DNA from: an uncultured virus (IMG/VR IMGVR_UViG_3300025168_000059)
Lineage: Duplodnaviria; Heunggongvirae; Uroviricota; Caudoviricetes
Virus record (IMG/VR): IMGVR_UViG_3300025168_000059
DNA length: 20,000 nt
Direction: 5' to 3' (one strand)
Positions within the stretch are counted from its first letter, which is position 1. Each line of letters opens with the position of its first letter. The notes under the pieces are model-generated. The model had not been told where the DNA came from, made no database searches, and was given only the letters and a program-made list of their open reading frames with translations. Of this stretch, positions 2,616 through 10,045 are shown piece after piece. The position numbers were made by a program, and so were the translations under genes.

Positions 2616-2817
2616 TTAATTTATTAATATGTTTTACTCTATTAGGATTAACAGAAAATTTACCAAAGTATGGGAGTCTTACCCCATCAAAGTTTCCTTT
2701 CTTCATTATTTTATCTACAAATTTAAATTGAGAGTTTATAATATTTTCCACTTCTTTAAGGGGTAAATTATATTTAGTTGCTAGAATCTGTATTATTATT
2801 TTTTTGTCTTTTAACAT
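2590..2817 (-). CDS. HU/IHF-like DNA-binding protein
   Basis: IIQILATKYNLPLKEVENIINSQF...VRLPYFGKFSV matches the HU/IHF helices plus the V.l.gFG.F strand. IHF-like genes are known from crAss-like packaging modules. Confidence 0.78.
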   Translation of the reverse strand: MLKDKKIIIQILATKYNLPLKEVENIINSQFKFVDKIMKKGNFDGVRLPYFGKFSVNPNRVKHINKLNEKRKKEK

Positions 2818-3304
2818 TTTTTACTTTATCTAATGGTACTGTTCTAACATTTACTTGACCTAGTGTAGGTTCAATAGGAGGACTTGTAAATATTTGAACT
2901 CCATCTTCAGTATAATAAAAATTAGATTTATTATCTATTTGGGGTGGAGTTTCAATTTCTTTTTCTTTTTTTTCTTTTTCAGCTCTATCTACCTCTTCTT
3001 GTTCTTTTTTTGATAGTTCTTGCTTTTCCCATTTCTCTTTAGGGCAATCTGCTGTTTTCCATTTTGCTTTATGCTCTAGCAAACACCCGCAAGAACCACA
3101 CCTCATACTTTTTTCAATTAAAAATTCACATGACTTGCAGGTATCTAATCTTTTTTCATACTCTTCAGGAGTTACATTAGGGGCACCTTCTTTTACATAT
3201 TTAGCTAAATCTTTTGTAAAACTTTTAGCCATCTGAAAAAAAGATGGGGGTTTTACATAGTTATCATTTTTAGAATTATCGTTCTTCTGTGTAGGTTTTT
3301 CCAT
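2774..3304 (-). CDS. Cys-rich protein (DUF6171-like)
   Basis: YEKRLDTCKSC...RCGSCGC...KAKWKTADCPKEKW, a six-Cys pattern ending in CP..KW. Confidence 0.65.
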   Translation of the reverse strand: MEKPTQKNDNSKNDNYVKPPSFFQMAKSFTKDLAKYVKEGAPNVTPEEYEKRLDTCKSCEFLIEKSMRCGSCGCLLEHKAKWKTADCPKEKWEKQELSKKEQEEVDRAEKEKKEKEIETPPQIDNKSNFYYTEDGVQIFTSPPIEPTLGQVNVRTVPLDKVKNVKRQKNNNTDSSN

Positions 3305-4030: not shown

Positions 4031-4222
4031 CTATTTTTTCTTTAAAGTTGGTTCAGTTCTTATAAGACTAGGAAAACCATCAAACTTTTTTTCTACTTCT
4101 TGCATATACTTACCACATCCACAAATTGCTTCTGCAGTTATAACCTTGCCATCTATTACTTTTAGTGTAGCTTTTTGCAATTCTTTAGTTTCTTCCCCAC
4201 ACTTACATATAAACTTAATCAT
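4031..4222 (-). CDS. Small Zn-ribbon protein (paralog B)
   Basis: CxC ... CxCGxYM ... FxGFP. Similar to 3745-4026. Confidence 0.7.
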   Translation of the reverse strand: MIKFICKCGEETKELQKATLKVIDGKVITAEAICGCGKYMQEVEKKFDGFPSLIRTEPTLKKK

Positions 4223-4363: not shown

Positions 4364-4603
4364 TTATATTTTTAATTCTATTTTAGCTATACCCCCATTA
4401 ATATTAATTTCAGATGTTTTAGATTGCCTGTTAAATTCTGACACATACTTATCAATATCTTCTCTTGTACACAGAAAAGATAAAAATACTTGCAGTTCTT
4501 TAACAGCTAACTCTAAGTCTTTCCTTGTATCTACAGATTTAGAGTTTGCCTCTAAAAATTTATGGTAATCTTCAGTAGATATAGTGACAGTGCCTTTTAC
4601 CAC
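4364..4603 (-). CDS. Hypothetical protein
   Basis: 79 aa, overlapping the GroES stop within the same operon. Confidence 0.65.
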   Translation of the reverse strand: MVKGTVTISTEDYHKFLEANSKSVDTRKDLELAVKELQVFLSFLCTREDIDKYVSEFNRQSKTSEININGGIAKIELKI

Positions 4604-4866
4604 TTACCTAATAACTGATGTTCTCCAACTAACAGTAAATCTTTTTCGTCTATTCTAGCTTTTATAGCTTCTGTTCTGGGATCTATCATAACAGTATTCC
4701 CTTTTTTAGCAAAAGTGCACATAGGTCCTACTGCTAATACCTCTAATATGTTAGATCTCTTAGCATTTGATTCTGCTGTATCATCTCCTACAAAGATACC
4801 TGACTCTGTTTGTGTAATTGTTGGGTCTGGAAGGACGACCCATGATCCATTTGGTGTAAATTTCAT
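4597..4866 (-). CDS. groES: Co-chaperonin GroES/Cpn10-like protein
   Basis: MKFTPNGSWVVL (P..D.V.V-like), mobile loop TQTESGIFV, EVLAVGP, KKGNTV, and C-terminal LLVGEHQLLG (E..ILA-like). Confidence 0.85.
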   Translation of the reverse strand: MKFTPNGSWVVLPDPTITQTESGIFVGDDTAESNAKRSNILEVLAVGPMCTFAKKGNTVMIDPRTEAIKARIDEKDLLLVGEHQLLGKW

Positions 4867-4884
4867 AATCTATATATTTTTAGG

Positions 4885-4917
4885 CAAAGATATAAATTAT
4901 TTTTTTATAAATCCAAA
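4885..4917 (-). promoter_or_regulatory. Bacteroidota sigma-70 promoter for the groES-terL operon
   Basis: Minus strand TTTG (4917-4914), 21-nt spacer, TATCTTTG (4892-4885), matching the -33/-7 consensus TTTG/TAnnTTTG, just upstream of groES. Confidence 0.75.
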
Positions 4918-4944
4918 TGTTTTTTAAGAAAAGTTTTTTTACTA

Positions 4945-5197
4945 GAGGTAACTAGACGCAGTTATCCCCCTTGAGGTTTGATTTCAAACTTGGATTTCAC
5001 TTTAGCAGTGCTTCTCTTTTAAGAGACCAAAGGATAGTAATATTGATGTTAATTCACCGCACTTACCTATGTGCAATCTATCCTAACTAAAGTTTATACA
5101 CTCGTTCTTTTGCAACTACCGGAGAAAACTCTAATCCTATTTGGATCTACAATCCGATGTCTTTTCCCTTGTATGGTTACCGAGGGATGATATTGTT
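4945..5197 (-). ncRNA. Candidate highly structured ncRNA of unknown class
   Basis: No ORF in the track. Has its own upstream promoter, about 10 nested helices and a 5'-loop/3'-end pseudoknot. Several A-C mismatches on the plus strand become G-U pairs on the minus strand. Confidence 0.62.
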
Positions 5198-5203
5198 GCG
5201 GTG

Positions 5204-5234
5204 CAAAAGTAATAAAAATATATTACAATGCAAG
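5204..5234 (-). promoter_or_regulatory. Bacteroidota promoter driving the candidate ncRNA
   Basis: Minus strand CTTG (5234-5231), 19-nt spacer, TACTTTTG (5211-5204). Confidence 0.65.
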
Positions 5235-5497
5235 TAAAAATACAAAAATCATAAGTAATAAATATATTACAGGGGTTAAATCTCTTGTTTTCATACTACA
5301 AATATATTGTTACTTTTTTAGACCTATGTTAAGGTAATGTTAAATTTTAGAATAAAAAAAATTTTTTTTGGAGGGTTAATGAACGTGTGAACCAGCACAA
5401 TCATCGACCCCCACTATATTACGGAGTTCAAAGTACCCGTGCTTTAATCTCCAATTCAGAACTATTTTCTGAATTAATTCAAAAACATAAATGCCTT

Positions 5498-5755
5498 ATG
5501 TCAGCAGAACTAACACAAATCAGCATGCAAGAGTATGCTCAATCTATTAACGCAGTCAGCGGAGAAATCATAGCAGGTCCTAACGGAGACTTCATCTCAT
5601 TTAAACATGCTGATGATACCAAATCTACTTTACCAATAGGTAATAGGAGTCAAGGTATGAACAAGCCATCTCAACTTGATGTATTGATGCTACCTGACGG
5701 TGGTAAAGTAGCTACTGTTAATCAATATGTAGGACAAGGTGTGGAAAGCTTCTAG
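5498..5755 (+). CDS. Hypothetical protein, first gene of the plus-strand arm
   Basis: The track ORF starts at GTG 5387. The in-frame ATG at 5498 (MSAELTQIS...) follows an A-rich leader and is the more likely start. Confidence 0.6.
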   Translation: MSAELTQISMQEYAQSINAVSGEIIAGPNGDFISFKHADDTKSTLPIGNRSQGMNKPSQLDVLMLPDGGKVATVNQYVGQGVESF

Positions 5756-5759
5756 TAGT

Positions 5760-5778
5760 TAAGGGAGTTTCTCCCTTA
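5760..5778 (+). terminator. Hairpin after ORF (terminator-like, weak U tract)
   Basis: TAAGGGAG-ttt-CTCCCTTA, 8-bp stem. Confidence 0.45.
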
Positions 5779-5807
5779 CTCTCCATCTAATTAAATGATT
5801 ACGGTGT

Positions 5808-5842
5808 GTGAGTGTGGCAATCAGGTCACATTCACCACTTTT
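5808..5842 (+). terminator. Hairpin with short U tract
   Basis: GTGAGTGTGGC / GTCACATTCAC, 11 bp with 2 G-U pairs, followed by CACTTTT. Confidence 0.45.
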
Positions 5843-5960
5843 CCCCACAATTTAGCAATCAATCTAATTACTAATATAAGATAATATAACACAAAGGATA
5901 GAATGTTAGGGGTTGTGCTAATCTATTATTGTCGTAATACTTGTTGCTTAACATTCATAA

Positions 5961-5994
5961 AAGGTAAGGGCTTAGCACAGCTCTTACTTTATTT
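5961..5994 (+). terminator. Intrinsic terminator-like hairpin
   Basis: GTAAGGGCT-tagcac-AGCTCTTAC followed by TTTATTT. Confidence 0.55.
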
Positions 5995-6009
5995 AACTTA
6001 AACATAACT

Positions 6010-6146
6010 TAATAACAGGTTTAACAATAAGCCTAGTGGTTAGTGATAACCTTCTAGAACTAGTGTCGAACAGTAGAGATGCCTCTAAGAGGATGTGACA
6101 TCTAGAGCATTAAGCTTGAAACAAAAACCCTGCTGACCTGTTATTA
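6010..6146 (+). ncRNA. Candidate multi-stem structured RNA element
   Basis: Perfect 11-bp closing stem TAATAACAGGT/ACCTGTTATTA. Internal hairpins GGTTA-GTGA-TAACC (GNRA loop) and ATGC(C)TCTA...TAGAGCAT. Confidence 0.45.
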
Positions 6147-6153
6147 TTAACAT

Positions 6154-6239
6154 AAACTATTATAAGGTAGGCTAATGGACCAAAAGCTTTAGTATAAGTG
6201 TACATAATACTACTAACAACTCCTAACTTATAATAGTTT
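6154..6239 (+). other. Long inverted repeat / stem-closed element
   Basis: Perfect 13-bp AAACTATTATAAG/CTTATAATAGTTT, extended by TAGG/CCTA. Confidence 0.6.
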
Positions 6240-6250
6240 TTAACCTAAAC

Positions 6251-6512
6251 ATTAACTAAACACAAATAAAGAGATGACACAAAATGAATTAATAAGATTA
6301 AAAACAATAAGAGACTTTTTAGATACACCTTTTCAAGGAGATATGGCATCACAAATGTTTGATGATGCAATGAACTGGCAAATGACAGGAGAATGTGAAT
6401 GTCAACAAAGATGTGACTGTGAGTATCATTATGGTGAAGTAACAGGTGAAAATCCTAATCAAAAAGAAATAGATATAATAGATAAAATATTAACTAAACA
6501 TAAATAAAGAGA
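6251..6512 (+). repeat. 24-bp direct repeat flanking the 77-aa ORF
   Basis: ATTAACTAAACACAAATAAAGAGA (6251-6274) versus ATTAACTAAACATAAATAAAGAGA (6489-6512), one mismatch. Confidence 0.8.
6274..6507 (+). CDS. Small Cys-containing hypothetical protein
   Basis: 77 aa with CECQQRCDC and an A-rich leader. Confidence 0.7.
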   Translation: MTQNELIRLKTIRDFLDTPFQGDMASQMFDDAMNWQMTGECECQQRCDCEYHYGEVTGENPNQKEIDIIDKILTKHK

Positions 6513-7916: not shown

Positions 7917-8147
7917 ATGGGAAAAATGAAATGGATTTATCAAATGGTGCAAGATGGCACTTCAGAACAATTTATGAAAACATATTTAGAAGCTAAACTA
8001 AACAATAAAGAAGGCTTCATGTTTGATTCACAGTATATTAGTATATTACAAGGCAGATCAATTCTTAGAGAAATGAAAAAAGCTAATAAAGAATATAATA
8101 GATATATAGATGATCAAGCAGAATATCAAAAATACTACGGAGCATGA
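7917..8147 (+). CDS. Hypothetical protein
   Basis: 76 aa (MGKMKWIY...), with ATGA overlap onto polA. Confidence 0.7.
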   Translation: MGKMKWIYQMVQDGTSEQFMKTYLEAKLNNKEGFMFDSQYISILQGRSILREMKKANKEYNRYIDDQAEYQKYYGA

Positions 8148-10045
8148 TATATTTAATAGATGGGACACAAAATACTGCATTGCTTACAGAGCGATATAAT
8201 TTAGGGAATATTAATGATGCTGTAGAATATTGCTCTGATAAAACAGTACTAGGAGTAGACACAGAGACTGAGGGTTTTGATTTCACATCTAAGAAAATGA
8301 TTATGTTTCAAATAGGAGACGAAGACAAACAATTTGTTATAGATACACGAGTTGTTAGTATTGAGCCGCTTAGAGAAATATTAGAGAGTCAGGAAATAGT
8401 TAAAATATTTCATAACGCTAAGTTTGACTACAAGTTTATTAAACGCTGGGCAGATATAGAATGTGAGGGTATTTATGATACATTCCTTACTGAGCGTGTT
8501 TTAAACTGCGGTAGAGATGGAGTTAGATACGGACTTAAAGATGTTTGTAAAAAATACCTAAATGTTGAGTTAAACAAAGAGGTAAGAAATCAATTTATAG
8601 GGTTAACAGGTCAACCGTTTCGTGACGATCAAATAGTTTATGGGGCTAAAGATGTAGAGTATTTAATAGGTGTACGAAACCACCAGCTCCCATTGATAGA
8701 CAGAGCTAAACTAAATAATGTAGTTGATTTAGAAAATGAAGCTGTTAAATCATTTGCAGACATAGAATATAATGGTTTAAATCTAGATACAGAAGCATGG
8801 AAAAAGATTGAAGCTGTTAATCAAGATAAAGCAGAGACTTTAGAGGAAAGTTTAGATGATATGATAAGAGTTGATGCAAGAGTTAAACATTTTGTTTCTA
8901 GATACATACAGACAGACATGTTTACACCAACCGAAGACATTAGAGATATAGATGTTAAATGGAGCTCCCCTAAACAAGCTCTTGACGTCTTTCAATGTTT
9001 AGTCCCTAAACTTGAGAATGTTAACGGTAAACAAATGTATAAATATAGATTTAAATATCCTTTGATAGATAAATATGTAAAGTACAAAGAAGCAATGAAG
9101 TTGTGCACCTCTTATGGGGACGCATTCTTTAAGAATTTAGCTTCAGATAATAAAATTCATACCAATTTTCACCAGATACTAGACACCGGCCGTGTAAGTA
9201 GCAGTAAACCTAATATGCAGCAGATACCTGCTGATAATATATACAGGAACTGTTTCATCGCACCCGATGGTTGGAGTTTTGTCAGTGCTGATTATTCTTC
9301 ACAAGAGTTAAATGTCATAGCTTATGGTAGCAAAGATCCAGTTTGGATAGCAGCGCTAAAGAATAATGAAGACCTGCACTCCACGTGTGCCGAGTTAGTA
9401 TATGGTGATCAATGGTTAACTAGTGGGGAGGATAACTGTGTTTACATGAGTAAAAAACAAAAATGTAATTGTCCTTCACACAAAAAACTTAGAACAAATG
9501 TCAAAACTATTAATTTCGGTCTTGCTTACGGGATGGGCCCTAATAAGCTTTCTGATACTCTTAACATCAGTTTGGAGGCAGCTAAAGAGCTCATCGAAAA
9601 ATACTTCAAAGCATTCCCATCAATCGAAGGATTCTTAGATAAACTAGGTAACTATGGTAAAAAGTATGGTTATATTAAAACATTCCCTCCTTATAATAGA
9701 AAGAGATGGTTTAGTAACTGGTACCCAAAGATTTGGAACAATAAATCATCTATGATGGAGCTTGGTAGTATTGAACGAGCATCTAAGAACACACCTATAC
9801 AAGGAGCTAGTGCAGATATGACTAAGAAAGCATTGATACTAATGCGTGATCATATCAAAGAAGTAAACGCTCCTGTTAAACTAGTAATGACTGTACATGA
9901 TCAGATAGATACTATATGTTCTAATGAATATGTAAATCAATGGACAATCGATATGAAAGGTTTAATGGAGCATGCAGCTAATGAGATAGTAACCAATGGC
10001 TTGCTAAAAGCTGAGGTAACAGTTAGTGATTGTTGGGAGAAATAA
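8144..10045 (+). CDS. polA: DNA polymerase family A with 3'-5' exonuclease domain
   Basis: ExoI VDTETEG, ExoII HNAKFD, ExoIII YGAKD; TGRVSSSKPNMQQIP; motif A ADYSSQEL; motif B RTNVKTINFGLAYG; motif C VHDQ. No 5'-3' exonuclease domain. Confidence 0.96.
   Translation: MIYLIDGTQNTALLTERYNLGNINDAVEYCSDKTVLGVDTETEGFDFTSKKMIMFQIGDEDKQFVIDTRVVSIEPLREILESQEIVKIFHNAKFDYKFIKRWADIECEGIYDTFLTERVLNCGRDGVRYGLKDVCKKYLNVELNKEVRNQFIGLTGQPFRDDQIVYGAKDVEYLIGVRNHQLPLIDRAKLNNVVDLENEAVKSFADIEYNGLNLDTEAWKKIEAVNQDKAETLEESLDDMIRVDARVKHFVSRYIQTDMFTPTEDIRDIDVKWSSPKQALDVFQCLVPKLENVNGKQMYKYRFKYPLIDKYVKYKEAMKLCTSYGDAFFKNLASDNKIHTNFHQILDTGRVSSSKPNMQQIPADNIYRNCFIAPDGWSFVSADYSSQELNVIAYGSKDPVWIAALKNNEDLHSTCAELVYGDQWLTSGEDNCVYMSKKQKCNCPSHKKLRTNVKTINFGLAYGMGPNKLSDTLNISLEAAKELIEKYFKAFPSIEGFLDKLGNYGKKYGYIKTFPPYNRKRWFSNWYPKIWNNKSSMMELGSIERASKNTPIQGASADMTKKALILMRDHIKEVNAPVKLVMTVHDQIDTICSNEYVNQWTIDMKGLMEHAANEIVTNGLLKAEVTVSDCWEK

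Follow-up and report, generated by a model that had tools for sequence, protein, structure and literature searches.

What does a phage genome encode in a segment that holds no protein gene and yet has a promoter of its own? We address this question for a locus in a 20,000-nucleotide (nt) DNA sequence from an uncultured virus (IMG/VR record IMGVR_UViG_3300025168_000059), the whole of which we call the window; the segment lies upstream of a gene for a GroES-like co-chaperonin (groES). A first-pass annotation, made from the letters of the sequence alone, had proposed that the segment produces a promoter-driven, multi-helix non-coding RNA of about 250 nt, of unrecognised class and read from the minus strand. 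Comparison with related loci upholds this proposal: positions 5201-4955 almost certainly constitute a real, conserved and strand-specific structured RNA gene. The RNA has about eleven stems, is encoded on the minus strand behind a promoter of the host type (Bacteroidota sigma-A-like), and is a single-copy element, the first to be transcribed on the late arm of the genome. Its carriers are a clade of uncultured marine crAss-like phages. In both the gut and the ocean, crAss-like phages belong to the most abundant viruses, and how they control their middle and late genes via the host polymerase is largely unknown.

Conservation of the RNA among related phages

Homologous loci were first fetched through the GroES-like protein, and in phages whose GroES-like protein is 63-83% identical, the non-coding stretch is 75-85% identical at the nucleotide level. 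A scan of viral contigs for a core motif (exact AGACATCGGATTG, a gap of 15-35, then TTCTCCGG) located it in 114 stretches; these hold 113 full-length copies of the RNA, 90 of which are distinct and 80 of which are under 96% mutual identity. Over 66 loci, mean nucleotide identity is 79.6% in the RNA versus 67.0% in the adjacent groES-like coding sequence, and in 93% of locus pairs the RNA is conserved better than the coding sequence. We also built R1, a covariance model of the 5′ domain with 105 positions. Each of 5/5 near-complete genomes of 84-94 kilobases (kb) yields a single strong R1 match (70-119 bits), and R1 also matches 67/80 loci fetched with a GroES-like profile. Six misses or weak matches were inspected; in three of them the 3′ part of the RNA lies at the contig edge (L153, L171, L224) and in the other three the 5′ domain is a variant (L203, L216, L219). 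The remaining misses have too little upstream DNA to judge.

Several groups of diverged variants (L032/L120, L053/L077/L118, L101 and L203/L216/L219) keep the 5′ core and a 3′ UUGAAA...CAAGGGG and differ in between. Across these variants a set of unpaired stretches is near-invariant, namely UAGAC, UUG...UUUUC, the GGUAACC loop and AAGGGGGA.

Protein coding does not account for this conservation. The longest frame in 4930-5260 spans 52 amino acids from stop to stop, and a test for a protein-coding gene, possibly in another genetic code, was negative, with no conserved frame and with substitutions that preserve base pairs, not codons. The guanine-plus-cytosine (GC) fraction is 0.375 at 5000-5199, compared with 0.20-0.35 in most flanking bins. 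The description of the segment as relatively GC-rich and free of open reading frames (ORFs) therefore stands.

Comparative support for the fold

The fold was derived with RNAalifold and by inspection, giving a 12-helix model whose helices were tested on an alignment (A2) of 80 sequences, each less than 96% identical to the others. In six variant rows of A2 the 3′ half aligns poorly, and these rows lower, rather than raise, the pairing figures. The model pairs 93.3% of 4638 cells in A2, compared with 85.3% for shuffled partners and 36-52% for slid ones. Two-sided changes occur in 34/59 pairs (392 cells), and none of 500 shuffles matches the model on any of five measures. Covariation among the homologues upstream of groES is thus strong. 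It is also directional: there are 553 G·U cells versus 44 A·C cells, and the same pairs are 82.3% paired on the opposite strand. Because G·U outnumbers A·C to this extent, the minus strand is the folding strand, in agreement with the promoter; the asymmetry that had been noted in the single sequence, with imperfect pairs being G-U on the minus strand and A-C on the plus strand, is therefore general.

Folding energy, by comparison, is uninformative. The minimum free energy of the single sequence is no better than that of dinucleotide shuffles, either on the minus strand (z -1.33, with 22/200 shuffles folding as well) or on the plus strand (z -1.65), and an expectation that the RNA would outfold such controls was not borne out. 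We therefore relied on covariation, and the evidence for the structure is comparative, not thermodynamic.

The model contains two domains connected by a linker hairpin and followed by a 3′ tail (Table 1). The 5′ domain is a three-way junction with a near-invariant core, UAGACAUCGGAUUG ... UUUUCUCCGGUAG. Within it, P3 does not vary in A2 because the search motif fixed it; however, in variant loci found via groES, P3 is compensated, being GUGGGA/UCCCAU in L203 and GUGGGA/UCCCAC in L216. P1 is likewise fully compensated in L203 and L216, becoming AAGGC/GCCUU in the variants. The linker hairpin forms a perfect stem of four base pairs, in any of three registers, in 59/74 sequences, compared with 48.0 +/- 2.2 for shuffled partners, and 0/1000 shuffles reach 59. 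In the 3′ domain, P4, P5, P5a, P5b and P6 have two to five pairs apiece with two-sided changes. The 3′ tail is weakly supported, with 72.6-91.1% of its cells paired and changes that are mostly one-sided, and the sequence of its terminal hairpin differs between phages.

Table 1. Positions in the window of the RNA, its helices, the flanking promoters and the first conserved gene of the late arm
Feature	Position	Strand	Basis or support
Promoter of the RNA: -7 box TACTTTTG (5211-5204) and -33-like CTTG (5234-5231), 19 nt apart	5204..5234	-	sequence read
Conserved structured RNA, ~245 nt	4955..5201	-	ends placed from promoter position and conservation drop
5′ domain, three-way junction closed by P1	5112..5199	-	comparative fold
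P1, GCAAC/GUUGC	5199-5195 with 5116-5112	-	95% paired, 5/5 pairs covary
P2	5188-5184 with 5168-5164	-	4/5 pairs covary
P3, AUCGGA/UCCGGU	5158-5153 with 5123-5118	-	invariant in 80 rows
P3a hairpin	5147-5143 with 5137-5133	-	4/5 pairs covary
Linker hairpin joining the two domains, conserved GUAUAA loop (GAGU 5103-5100 with ACUU 5093-5090)	5090..5103	-	shuffle test
3′ domain, closed by long-range helix P4	4999..5093	-	comparative fold
P4	5093-5086 with 5006-4999	-	inner five pairs 95.8% paired
P5	5084-5078 with 5037-5031	-	98.3% paired
P5a	5074-5071 with 5062-5059	-	98.4% paired
P5b	5058-5055 with 5048-5045	-	95.9% paired
P6, bulged	5028-5022 with 5015-5007	-	93.0% paired; 5/7 pairs change both sides
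3′ tail: hairpin AUCC..UUUG (4995-4985) with CAAG..GGAU (4973-4964) enclosing conserved AAGGGGGA, then variable terminal hairpin (4969-4947)	4947..4995	-	weak
Second promoter, serving the groES-like operon	4885..4917	-	exact TTTG-N21-TATCTTTG match
groES-like gene, 89 amino acids, first conserved late-arm gene	4597..4866	-	PHROG co-chaperonin GroES, E 2.3e-08

Seven of the twelve helices that the first-pass annotation had listed hold in the comparative model: UCCC/GGGA (P2), UCGGA/UCCGG (P3), AUCC/GGAU (P3a), ACUUUAGU/GCUAAAGU (P4), AGGAUAG/CUAUCCU (P5), GCAC/GUGC (P5a) and GGUG/CAUC (P5b), with the support given for each in Table 1. For an eighth, UCUCU/AGAGA, the strands were correctly identified and the register was wrong, as it is 64.5% paired as originally drawn and 93.0% paired in the bulged register of P6. 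The other four fail. A pseudoknot between the loop sequence GGUAAC and GUUACC at the 3′ end is 46.9% paired, the loop being conserved and its 3′ partner not; AGAC/GUCU is 64% paired with zero two-sided changes, and GUUUG/CAAAC is 45-51% paired. UAGUUG/UAACUG is 83% paired, but its 5′ strand belongs to P1. As a set, the unsupported helices pair in 61.0% of cells, compared with 60.6% when shuffled, and 79/500 shuffles do as well. Two further pairings raised by a covariation scan, one between the tail and the 5′ strand of P5 and the other between the loop and the ACUUG tail, resembled G-U-tolerant noise and were dropped.

Two ideas about function start from the fold. The first is that the RNA might be a ribozyme (self-cleaving or self-processing) or a self-assembling scaffold, an RNA-only multimer like GOLLD or ROOL. 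The ornate multi-helix fold and its invariant junction nucleotides would be in keeping with this, and the conserved GAAUUAAC loop has short palindromes from whose sequence kissing contacts seem possible. We nonetheless judge this extremely unlikely: the RNA matches no ribozyme family, the pseudoknot proposed for it fails the comparative test, and a length of ~245 nt is far below that of known multimeric RNAs.

The second idea is a riboswitch-like sensor, in which the 5′ junction would bind a small molecule or ion, or sense temperature, and alternative pairings of the 3′ tail would set transcription of the late arm. The arrangement of a conserved junction core beside a variable 3′ tail resembles that of an aptamer and its expression platform. 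In addition, the tail is able to form base pairs with the 3′ strand of P1 (UAGUU/AACUA, 83% of cells; A-U vs G-C association 13/22 vs 13/52), and a downstream AUCC..UUG repeat, seen in the sequences, could compete for CAAGGGGGA. The weak A-U/G-C association of UAGUUG/UAACUG makes it a possible alternative pairing that is not part of the fold. However, the alternative pairings do not exceed shuffled controls, and most copies are without a terminator or ribosome-binding-site platform, a terminator-like hairpin plus U-run lying behind the RNA in only 3/114 loci. The second promoter bypasses the RNA, and no known aptamer matches it even at E up to 10. A sensor is thus quite unlikely.

Searches against known RNAs and genomes

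The RNA matches no catalogued family. Rfam 15 (4227 covariance models) gave no match at the gathering threshold in the 20-kb window; a permissive search (E up to 10) of 4700-6500 gave two noise matches only, outside the RNA core, and a search of six variant loci at E up to 1 gave a single unrelated 16-bit match. ARAGORN found no tRNA or tmRNA gene in the window. With blastn against 50,697 GenBank phage records there was no match at 1e-5 and there were two noise matches of 24-31 nt at E 10. R1 had no credible match in phi14:2, Fpv1, cr114_1, PhiCrAssBcn17 or crAss002, and its best matches in these five reference phages, at 18.9 bits (within the crAss002 gp22 coding sequence) and 14.1 bits, were set aside as chance. 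The nearest record, G001, is a 9.9-kb fragment without the RNA locus. In the full-text passages of the literature, supplements aside, we found nothing that describes this RNA.

When one genome per prokaryote species (185,579 species) was scanned for the pattern, 9 matches emerged, compared with ~7 expected by chance on our own estimate, and we found no bacterial or prophage copy. Five of the nine were inspected (two contigs of metagenome-assembled genomes and three Escherichia chromosomes), and they have nothing in common with the RNA beyond the pattern; the other four are in Escherichia or Shigella chromosomes and have the same match length. The Escherichia coli and Shigella matches were also considered as lambdoid leaders, and the 3/7 inspected are chance matches in coding DNA.

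A relationship to bacterial Y RNAs was suggested by a gene for a TROVE (Ro60-like) protein annotated at 81,091 in PhiCrAssBcn17. We rejected this idea, as TROVE (PF05731) matches occur in 0/5 near-complete genomes bearing the RNA (controls 2/14). PhiCrAssBcn17 itself (L251, crAss001-like) has, within 72,500-82,500 of its record, full host-type promoter matches at 75,429-75,460 and 74,431-74,462 on the minus strand, near the head of its late arm, which precede ~340 and ~540 nt, respectively, without a sizeable annotated gene. Cultured crAss001-like phages with Y-RNA-like or other non-coding RNAs are a possibility.

Promoters, transcripts and possible read-through into the late arm

Separate minus-strand Bacteroidota promoters had been proposed for the RNA and for groES, and both are confirmed (Table 1). 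A TAnnTTTG box precedes the RNA in 111/116 homologous loci, and conservation begins immediately behind the box. Between the RNA and the first conserved ORF there is a -7 box in 63/79 loci. The L053, L077 and L118 variants are without the TAnnTTTG box and have a common upstream motif, AACCTTTT..N..CGTTATA. The full AACCTTTT...CGTTATA motif occurs once only in genome G003, which carries the variant RNA of L053 and whose late-arm gaps are all devoid of TAnnTTTG boxes. The promoter class, and perhaps the host, may differ for this variant.

No terminator-like site was found at the 3′ end of the RNA in the window. Contigs assembled from RNA libraries of relatives (80-95% alike) cover the RNA in some cases, although they show no ends and may reflect DNA carry-over; two such contigs, for which a DNA origin is also possible, bridge the RNA and groES.

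The position of the RNA is fixed. Genes downstream of it are always co-oriented with it and those upstream are divergent and variable; in the five near-complete genomes it heads a co-oriented arm of 62-72 kb. In 60/79 loci the groES-like gene is the first conserved ORF downstream, at a median distance of 94 nt. In 12/79 loci a small zinc-ribbon-like ORF that lacks a separate promoter begins ~22 nt behind the RNA, and a -7 box then stands directly ahead of groES in 12/12 of these. In L004 and L024, 1.1-1.7 kb of genes occupy the same place behind the RNA. Because promoterless ORFs follow the RNA, and given the inserts in L004 and L024, transcripts from the RNA promoter probably continue into coding sequence. 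In the window, a small Cys-rich ORF of 63 amino acids with a CxC...CxC pattern (4031-4222, minus strand) belongs to a type that is mobile within the locus, being directly behind the RNA, not further down the operon, in 12 related phages (L008, L015, L016 and others).

Further along the arm, an intergenic gap 12-21 kb from its start holds a strong intrinsic terminator in 4/5 near-complete genomes. In G004, G005 and G006 (L226-L240) these terminators take the form (A)GGGGG-loop-CCCCC(U) plus a U-run, and 40-50 kb of co-oriented genes lie beyond them with few or no TAnnTTTG boxes in the gaps. In four genomes, the TAnnTTTG boxes in gaps end 10-29 kb into the 62-72 kb arm. Promoters and terminators alike were sought with simple motifs in five genomes, and other promoter types could escape such scans.

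Possible action on host RNA polymerase

What might such an RNA do at the head of so long an operon? From its position, control of late genes is a live reading. Tentatively, and at less than even confidence, we propose that the RNA is a leader that acts on transcription of the late arm via the host RNA polymerase. We favour this reading because the map position is fixed, because transcription probably reads through into inserted ORFs, and because the arm is long and has terminators and few recognisable promoters. Host RNA polymerase would start at the promoter of the RNA and make the folded leader, whose near-invariant 5′ three-way-junction core would bind either the polymerase or an elongation factor that travels with it. 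Transcription would then become processive and pass the intrinsic terminators 12-21 kb downstream, and the polymerase could thereby reach the ~40-50 kb of genes beyond, with their few recognisable promoters. The logic of this mechanism would be that of the HK022 put RNAs, EAR and the lambda late leader.

Several observations weigh against a leader. Essentially every locus has a strong second promoter immediately ahead of groES, and polymerases that start there never transcribe the RNA. In L032 and L120, the RNA is lengthened to ~375 nt and closes with a stem plus U8-9, a canonical terminator; behind the terminator L032 has a further -7 box together with an ORF, and the whole looks like a self-contained gene. 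The minus strand of the window has no terminator-like site in the first 5 kb of the operon, and the promoters and terminators of the arm were called from the simple motif scans of five genomes described above. Rfam gave no similarity to put, EAR or other antiterminator RNAs, although whether it holds these families was not checked. Finally, no partner protein was identified, as Pfam and PHROG gave nothing informative for the neighbouring proteins.

Some of these same observations fit a stand-alone RNA that acts in trans. Such an RNA would be transcribed from its own promoter and then be released, or cut out by processing, as a discrete molecule of ~245 nt. It could be the RNA component of a ribonucleoprotein (RNP), or it could sequester a conserved protein of host or phage as a decoy or sponge; host takeover, anti-defence and RNA metabolism are examples of where it might act. 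We regard this as possible though doubtful, and as almost as favoured as the leader because the second promoter is always present, L032 is gene-like and the unpaired core is near-invariant. That the RNA and the next gene each have a promoter, and that L032 and L120 end in a terminator with a fresh promoter after it in L032, are what a separate transcription unit would show. The long unpaired stretches conserved among the variants are typical of protein or ligand contacts, and the complexity of the fold (~11 stems) is closer to that of RNP RNAs than to that of known leader elements. On the other hand, neither Pfam nor PHROG points to a candidate partner among the neighbouring proteins, and no TROVE/Ro protein is present in 5/5 genomes. 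The position at the arm head never varies, inserted ORFs would use the RNA as a 5′ untranslated region, and a terminator is absent behind most copies. If the RNA does act in trans, it would represent a new phage RNP or decoy RNA.

Returning to the leader, a bolder form of that reading, which we consider unlikely, is that this RNA founds a new class of phage RNAs, which would reprogram the host Bacteroidota RNA polymerase, alone or with a NusG-type factor, to make a 60-70 kb late arm terminator-proof. An ornate, single-copy RNA that is better conserved than the adjacent protein gene and fixed at the start of the late arm provides a testable handle on late-gene control. The roughly 100 distinct natural sequences and the clear covariation suffice for structure probing, cryo-electron microscopy and partner pull-downs.

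Genomic setting

The window covers part of a crAss-like phage genome. Its terminase large subunit (minus strand, 1-1242; PHROG E 4e-80) is ~43% identical to the terminases of gut crAss-like phages and has matches in 151 GenBank phage records, including crAss-like phages of Bacteroides and of Flavobacterium. The plus strand carries a family-A DNA polymerase (PolA, 8144-10045) and helicases, and the segment that contains the RNA is the point at which the two gene arms diverge. The groES-like protein scores 19.3 bits against Pfam Cpn10, under the 21.1-bit cut-off.

This location would also suit a replication-origin transcript, in which an invariant G-run near the 3′ end and the AT-rich DNA that follows it would produce a persistent hybrid at the divergence point that primes the family-A DNA polymerase. 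ColE1 RNA II and the T7 primary origin provide analogues for such a primer. The strand-switch point lies beside the replication module, the cumulative GC skew has its minimum at ~5500-5700, AAGGGGGA is conserved and followed by AT-rich sequence, and tandem promoters are present. However, the skew minimum falls where gene orientation switches and hence provides no independent information, and the conservation of helices throughout the RNA exceeds what a primer needs; we therefore consider an origin transcript very unlikely.

Upstream of the RNA promoter, two blocks are conserved at the nucleotide level, 5260-5460 in ~40 related loci and 5760-5910 in ~20. The first covers the start of a divergent ORF (5387-5755) and the region upstream of that ORF, and contigs from RNA libraries of relatives span 5174-5462; the second is within an ORF-free stretch (5756-6273) on the early-gene side. 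These blocks may be early promoters or another non-coding transcript. At 5340-5369 there is an A8T8 palindrome, AAAAAAAATTTTTTTT, where many 31-nt RNA-library contigs stack; the pile-up is probably a matching artefact, the sequence being low-complexity. Elsewhere on the minus strand, 2774-3304 encodes a DUF6171-family protein (E 5e-10) kept in 42 related loci, and 1976-2362 is a 128-amino-acid ORF with a weak Hint-domain match (E 0.015, under the cut-off).

Comparison with known phage RNAs

Several characterised RNAs share individual features with the one described here. The phi29 pRNA is likewise a phage-encoded structured RNA; however, the Rfam search matched no family, pRNA included, nothing that we found links the RNA to packaging, and crAss-like phages use an ordinary terminase. 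GOLLD and ROOL are RNAs of ~600-800 nt that are often near tRNA genes. They resemble this RNA in being phage-borne, intricately folded and covarying, but their models are unmatched both at the gathering threshold and at E up to 10, and this RNA occupies one fixed place on the map.

Among marine crAss-like phages, Cellulophaga phage phi14:2 is described, in the passages of the study consulted, as producing two abundant early long non-coding RNAs at the g004-g006 junctions, which are transcribed rightward together with the early genes and are already seen at the earliest time point; as to late-gene control, the same passages show only that the host enzyme is used (10.1101/2020.03.07.982082). In both cases a marine crAss-like phage encodes non-coding RNA. 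In contrast to those of phi14:2, however, the RNA described here lies on the strand of the late arm, has a host-type promoter and is of a different temporal class. The arm-head promoter of phi14:2 is followed immediately by g110. R1 found nothing in phi14:2.

The late leader of lambdoid phages offers a parallel in genome organisation. There, the PR′ promoter gives a ~194-nt '6S' leader that ends at tR′, which is read through with Q. As in this system, the late genes of the crAss-like phages are headed by a short non-coding transcript that is the first to be made, and the L032 and L120 variants resemble the lambda leader further in having a terminator right behind the RNA. The lambda leader, however, is not known to have an ornate conserved fold, and it needs Q at the promoter; nor is lambda known to have a second promoter behind tR′.

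The put RNAs of HK022 (putL and putR) are ~70 nt long and have two stem-loops, whereas this RNA is ~245 nt long with ~11 stems and matches nothing in Rfam at E up to 10. In put, EAR and the conAn2 RNA of pLS20-type plasmids, promoter-proximal folded RNAs of very long mobile-element operons have been proposed or shown to act on their own polymerase. In the crAss-like phages, a second promoter follows the RNA; like the other three, it is a promoter-proximal, folded RNA at the start of a very long operon.

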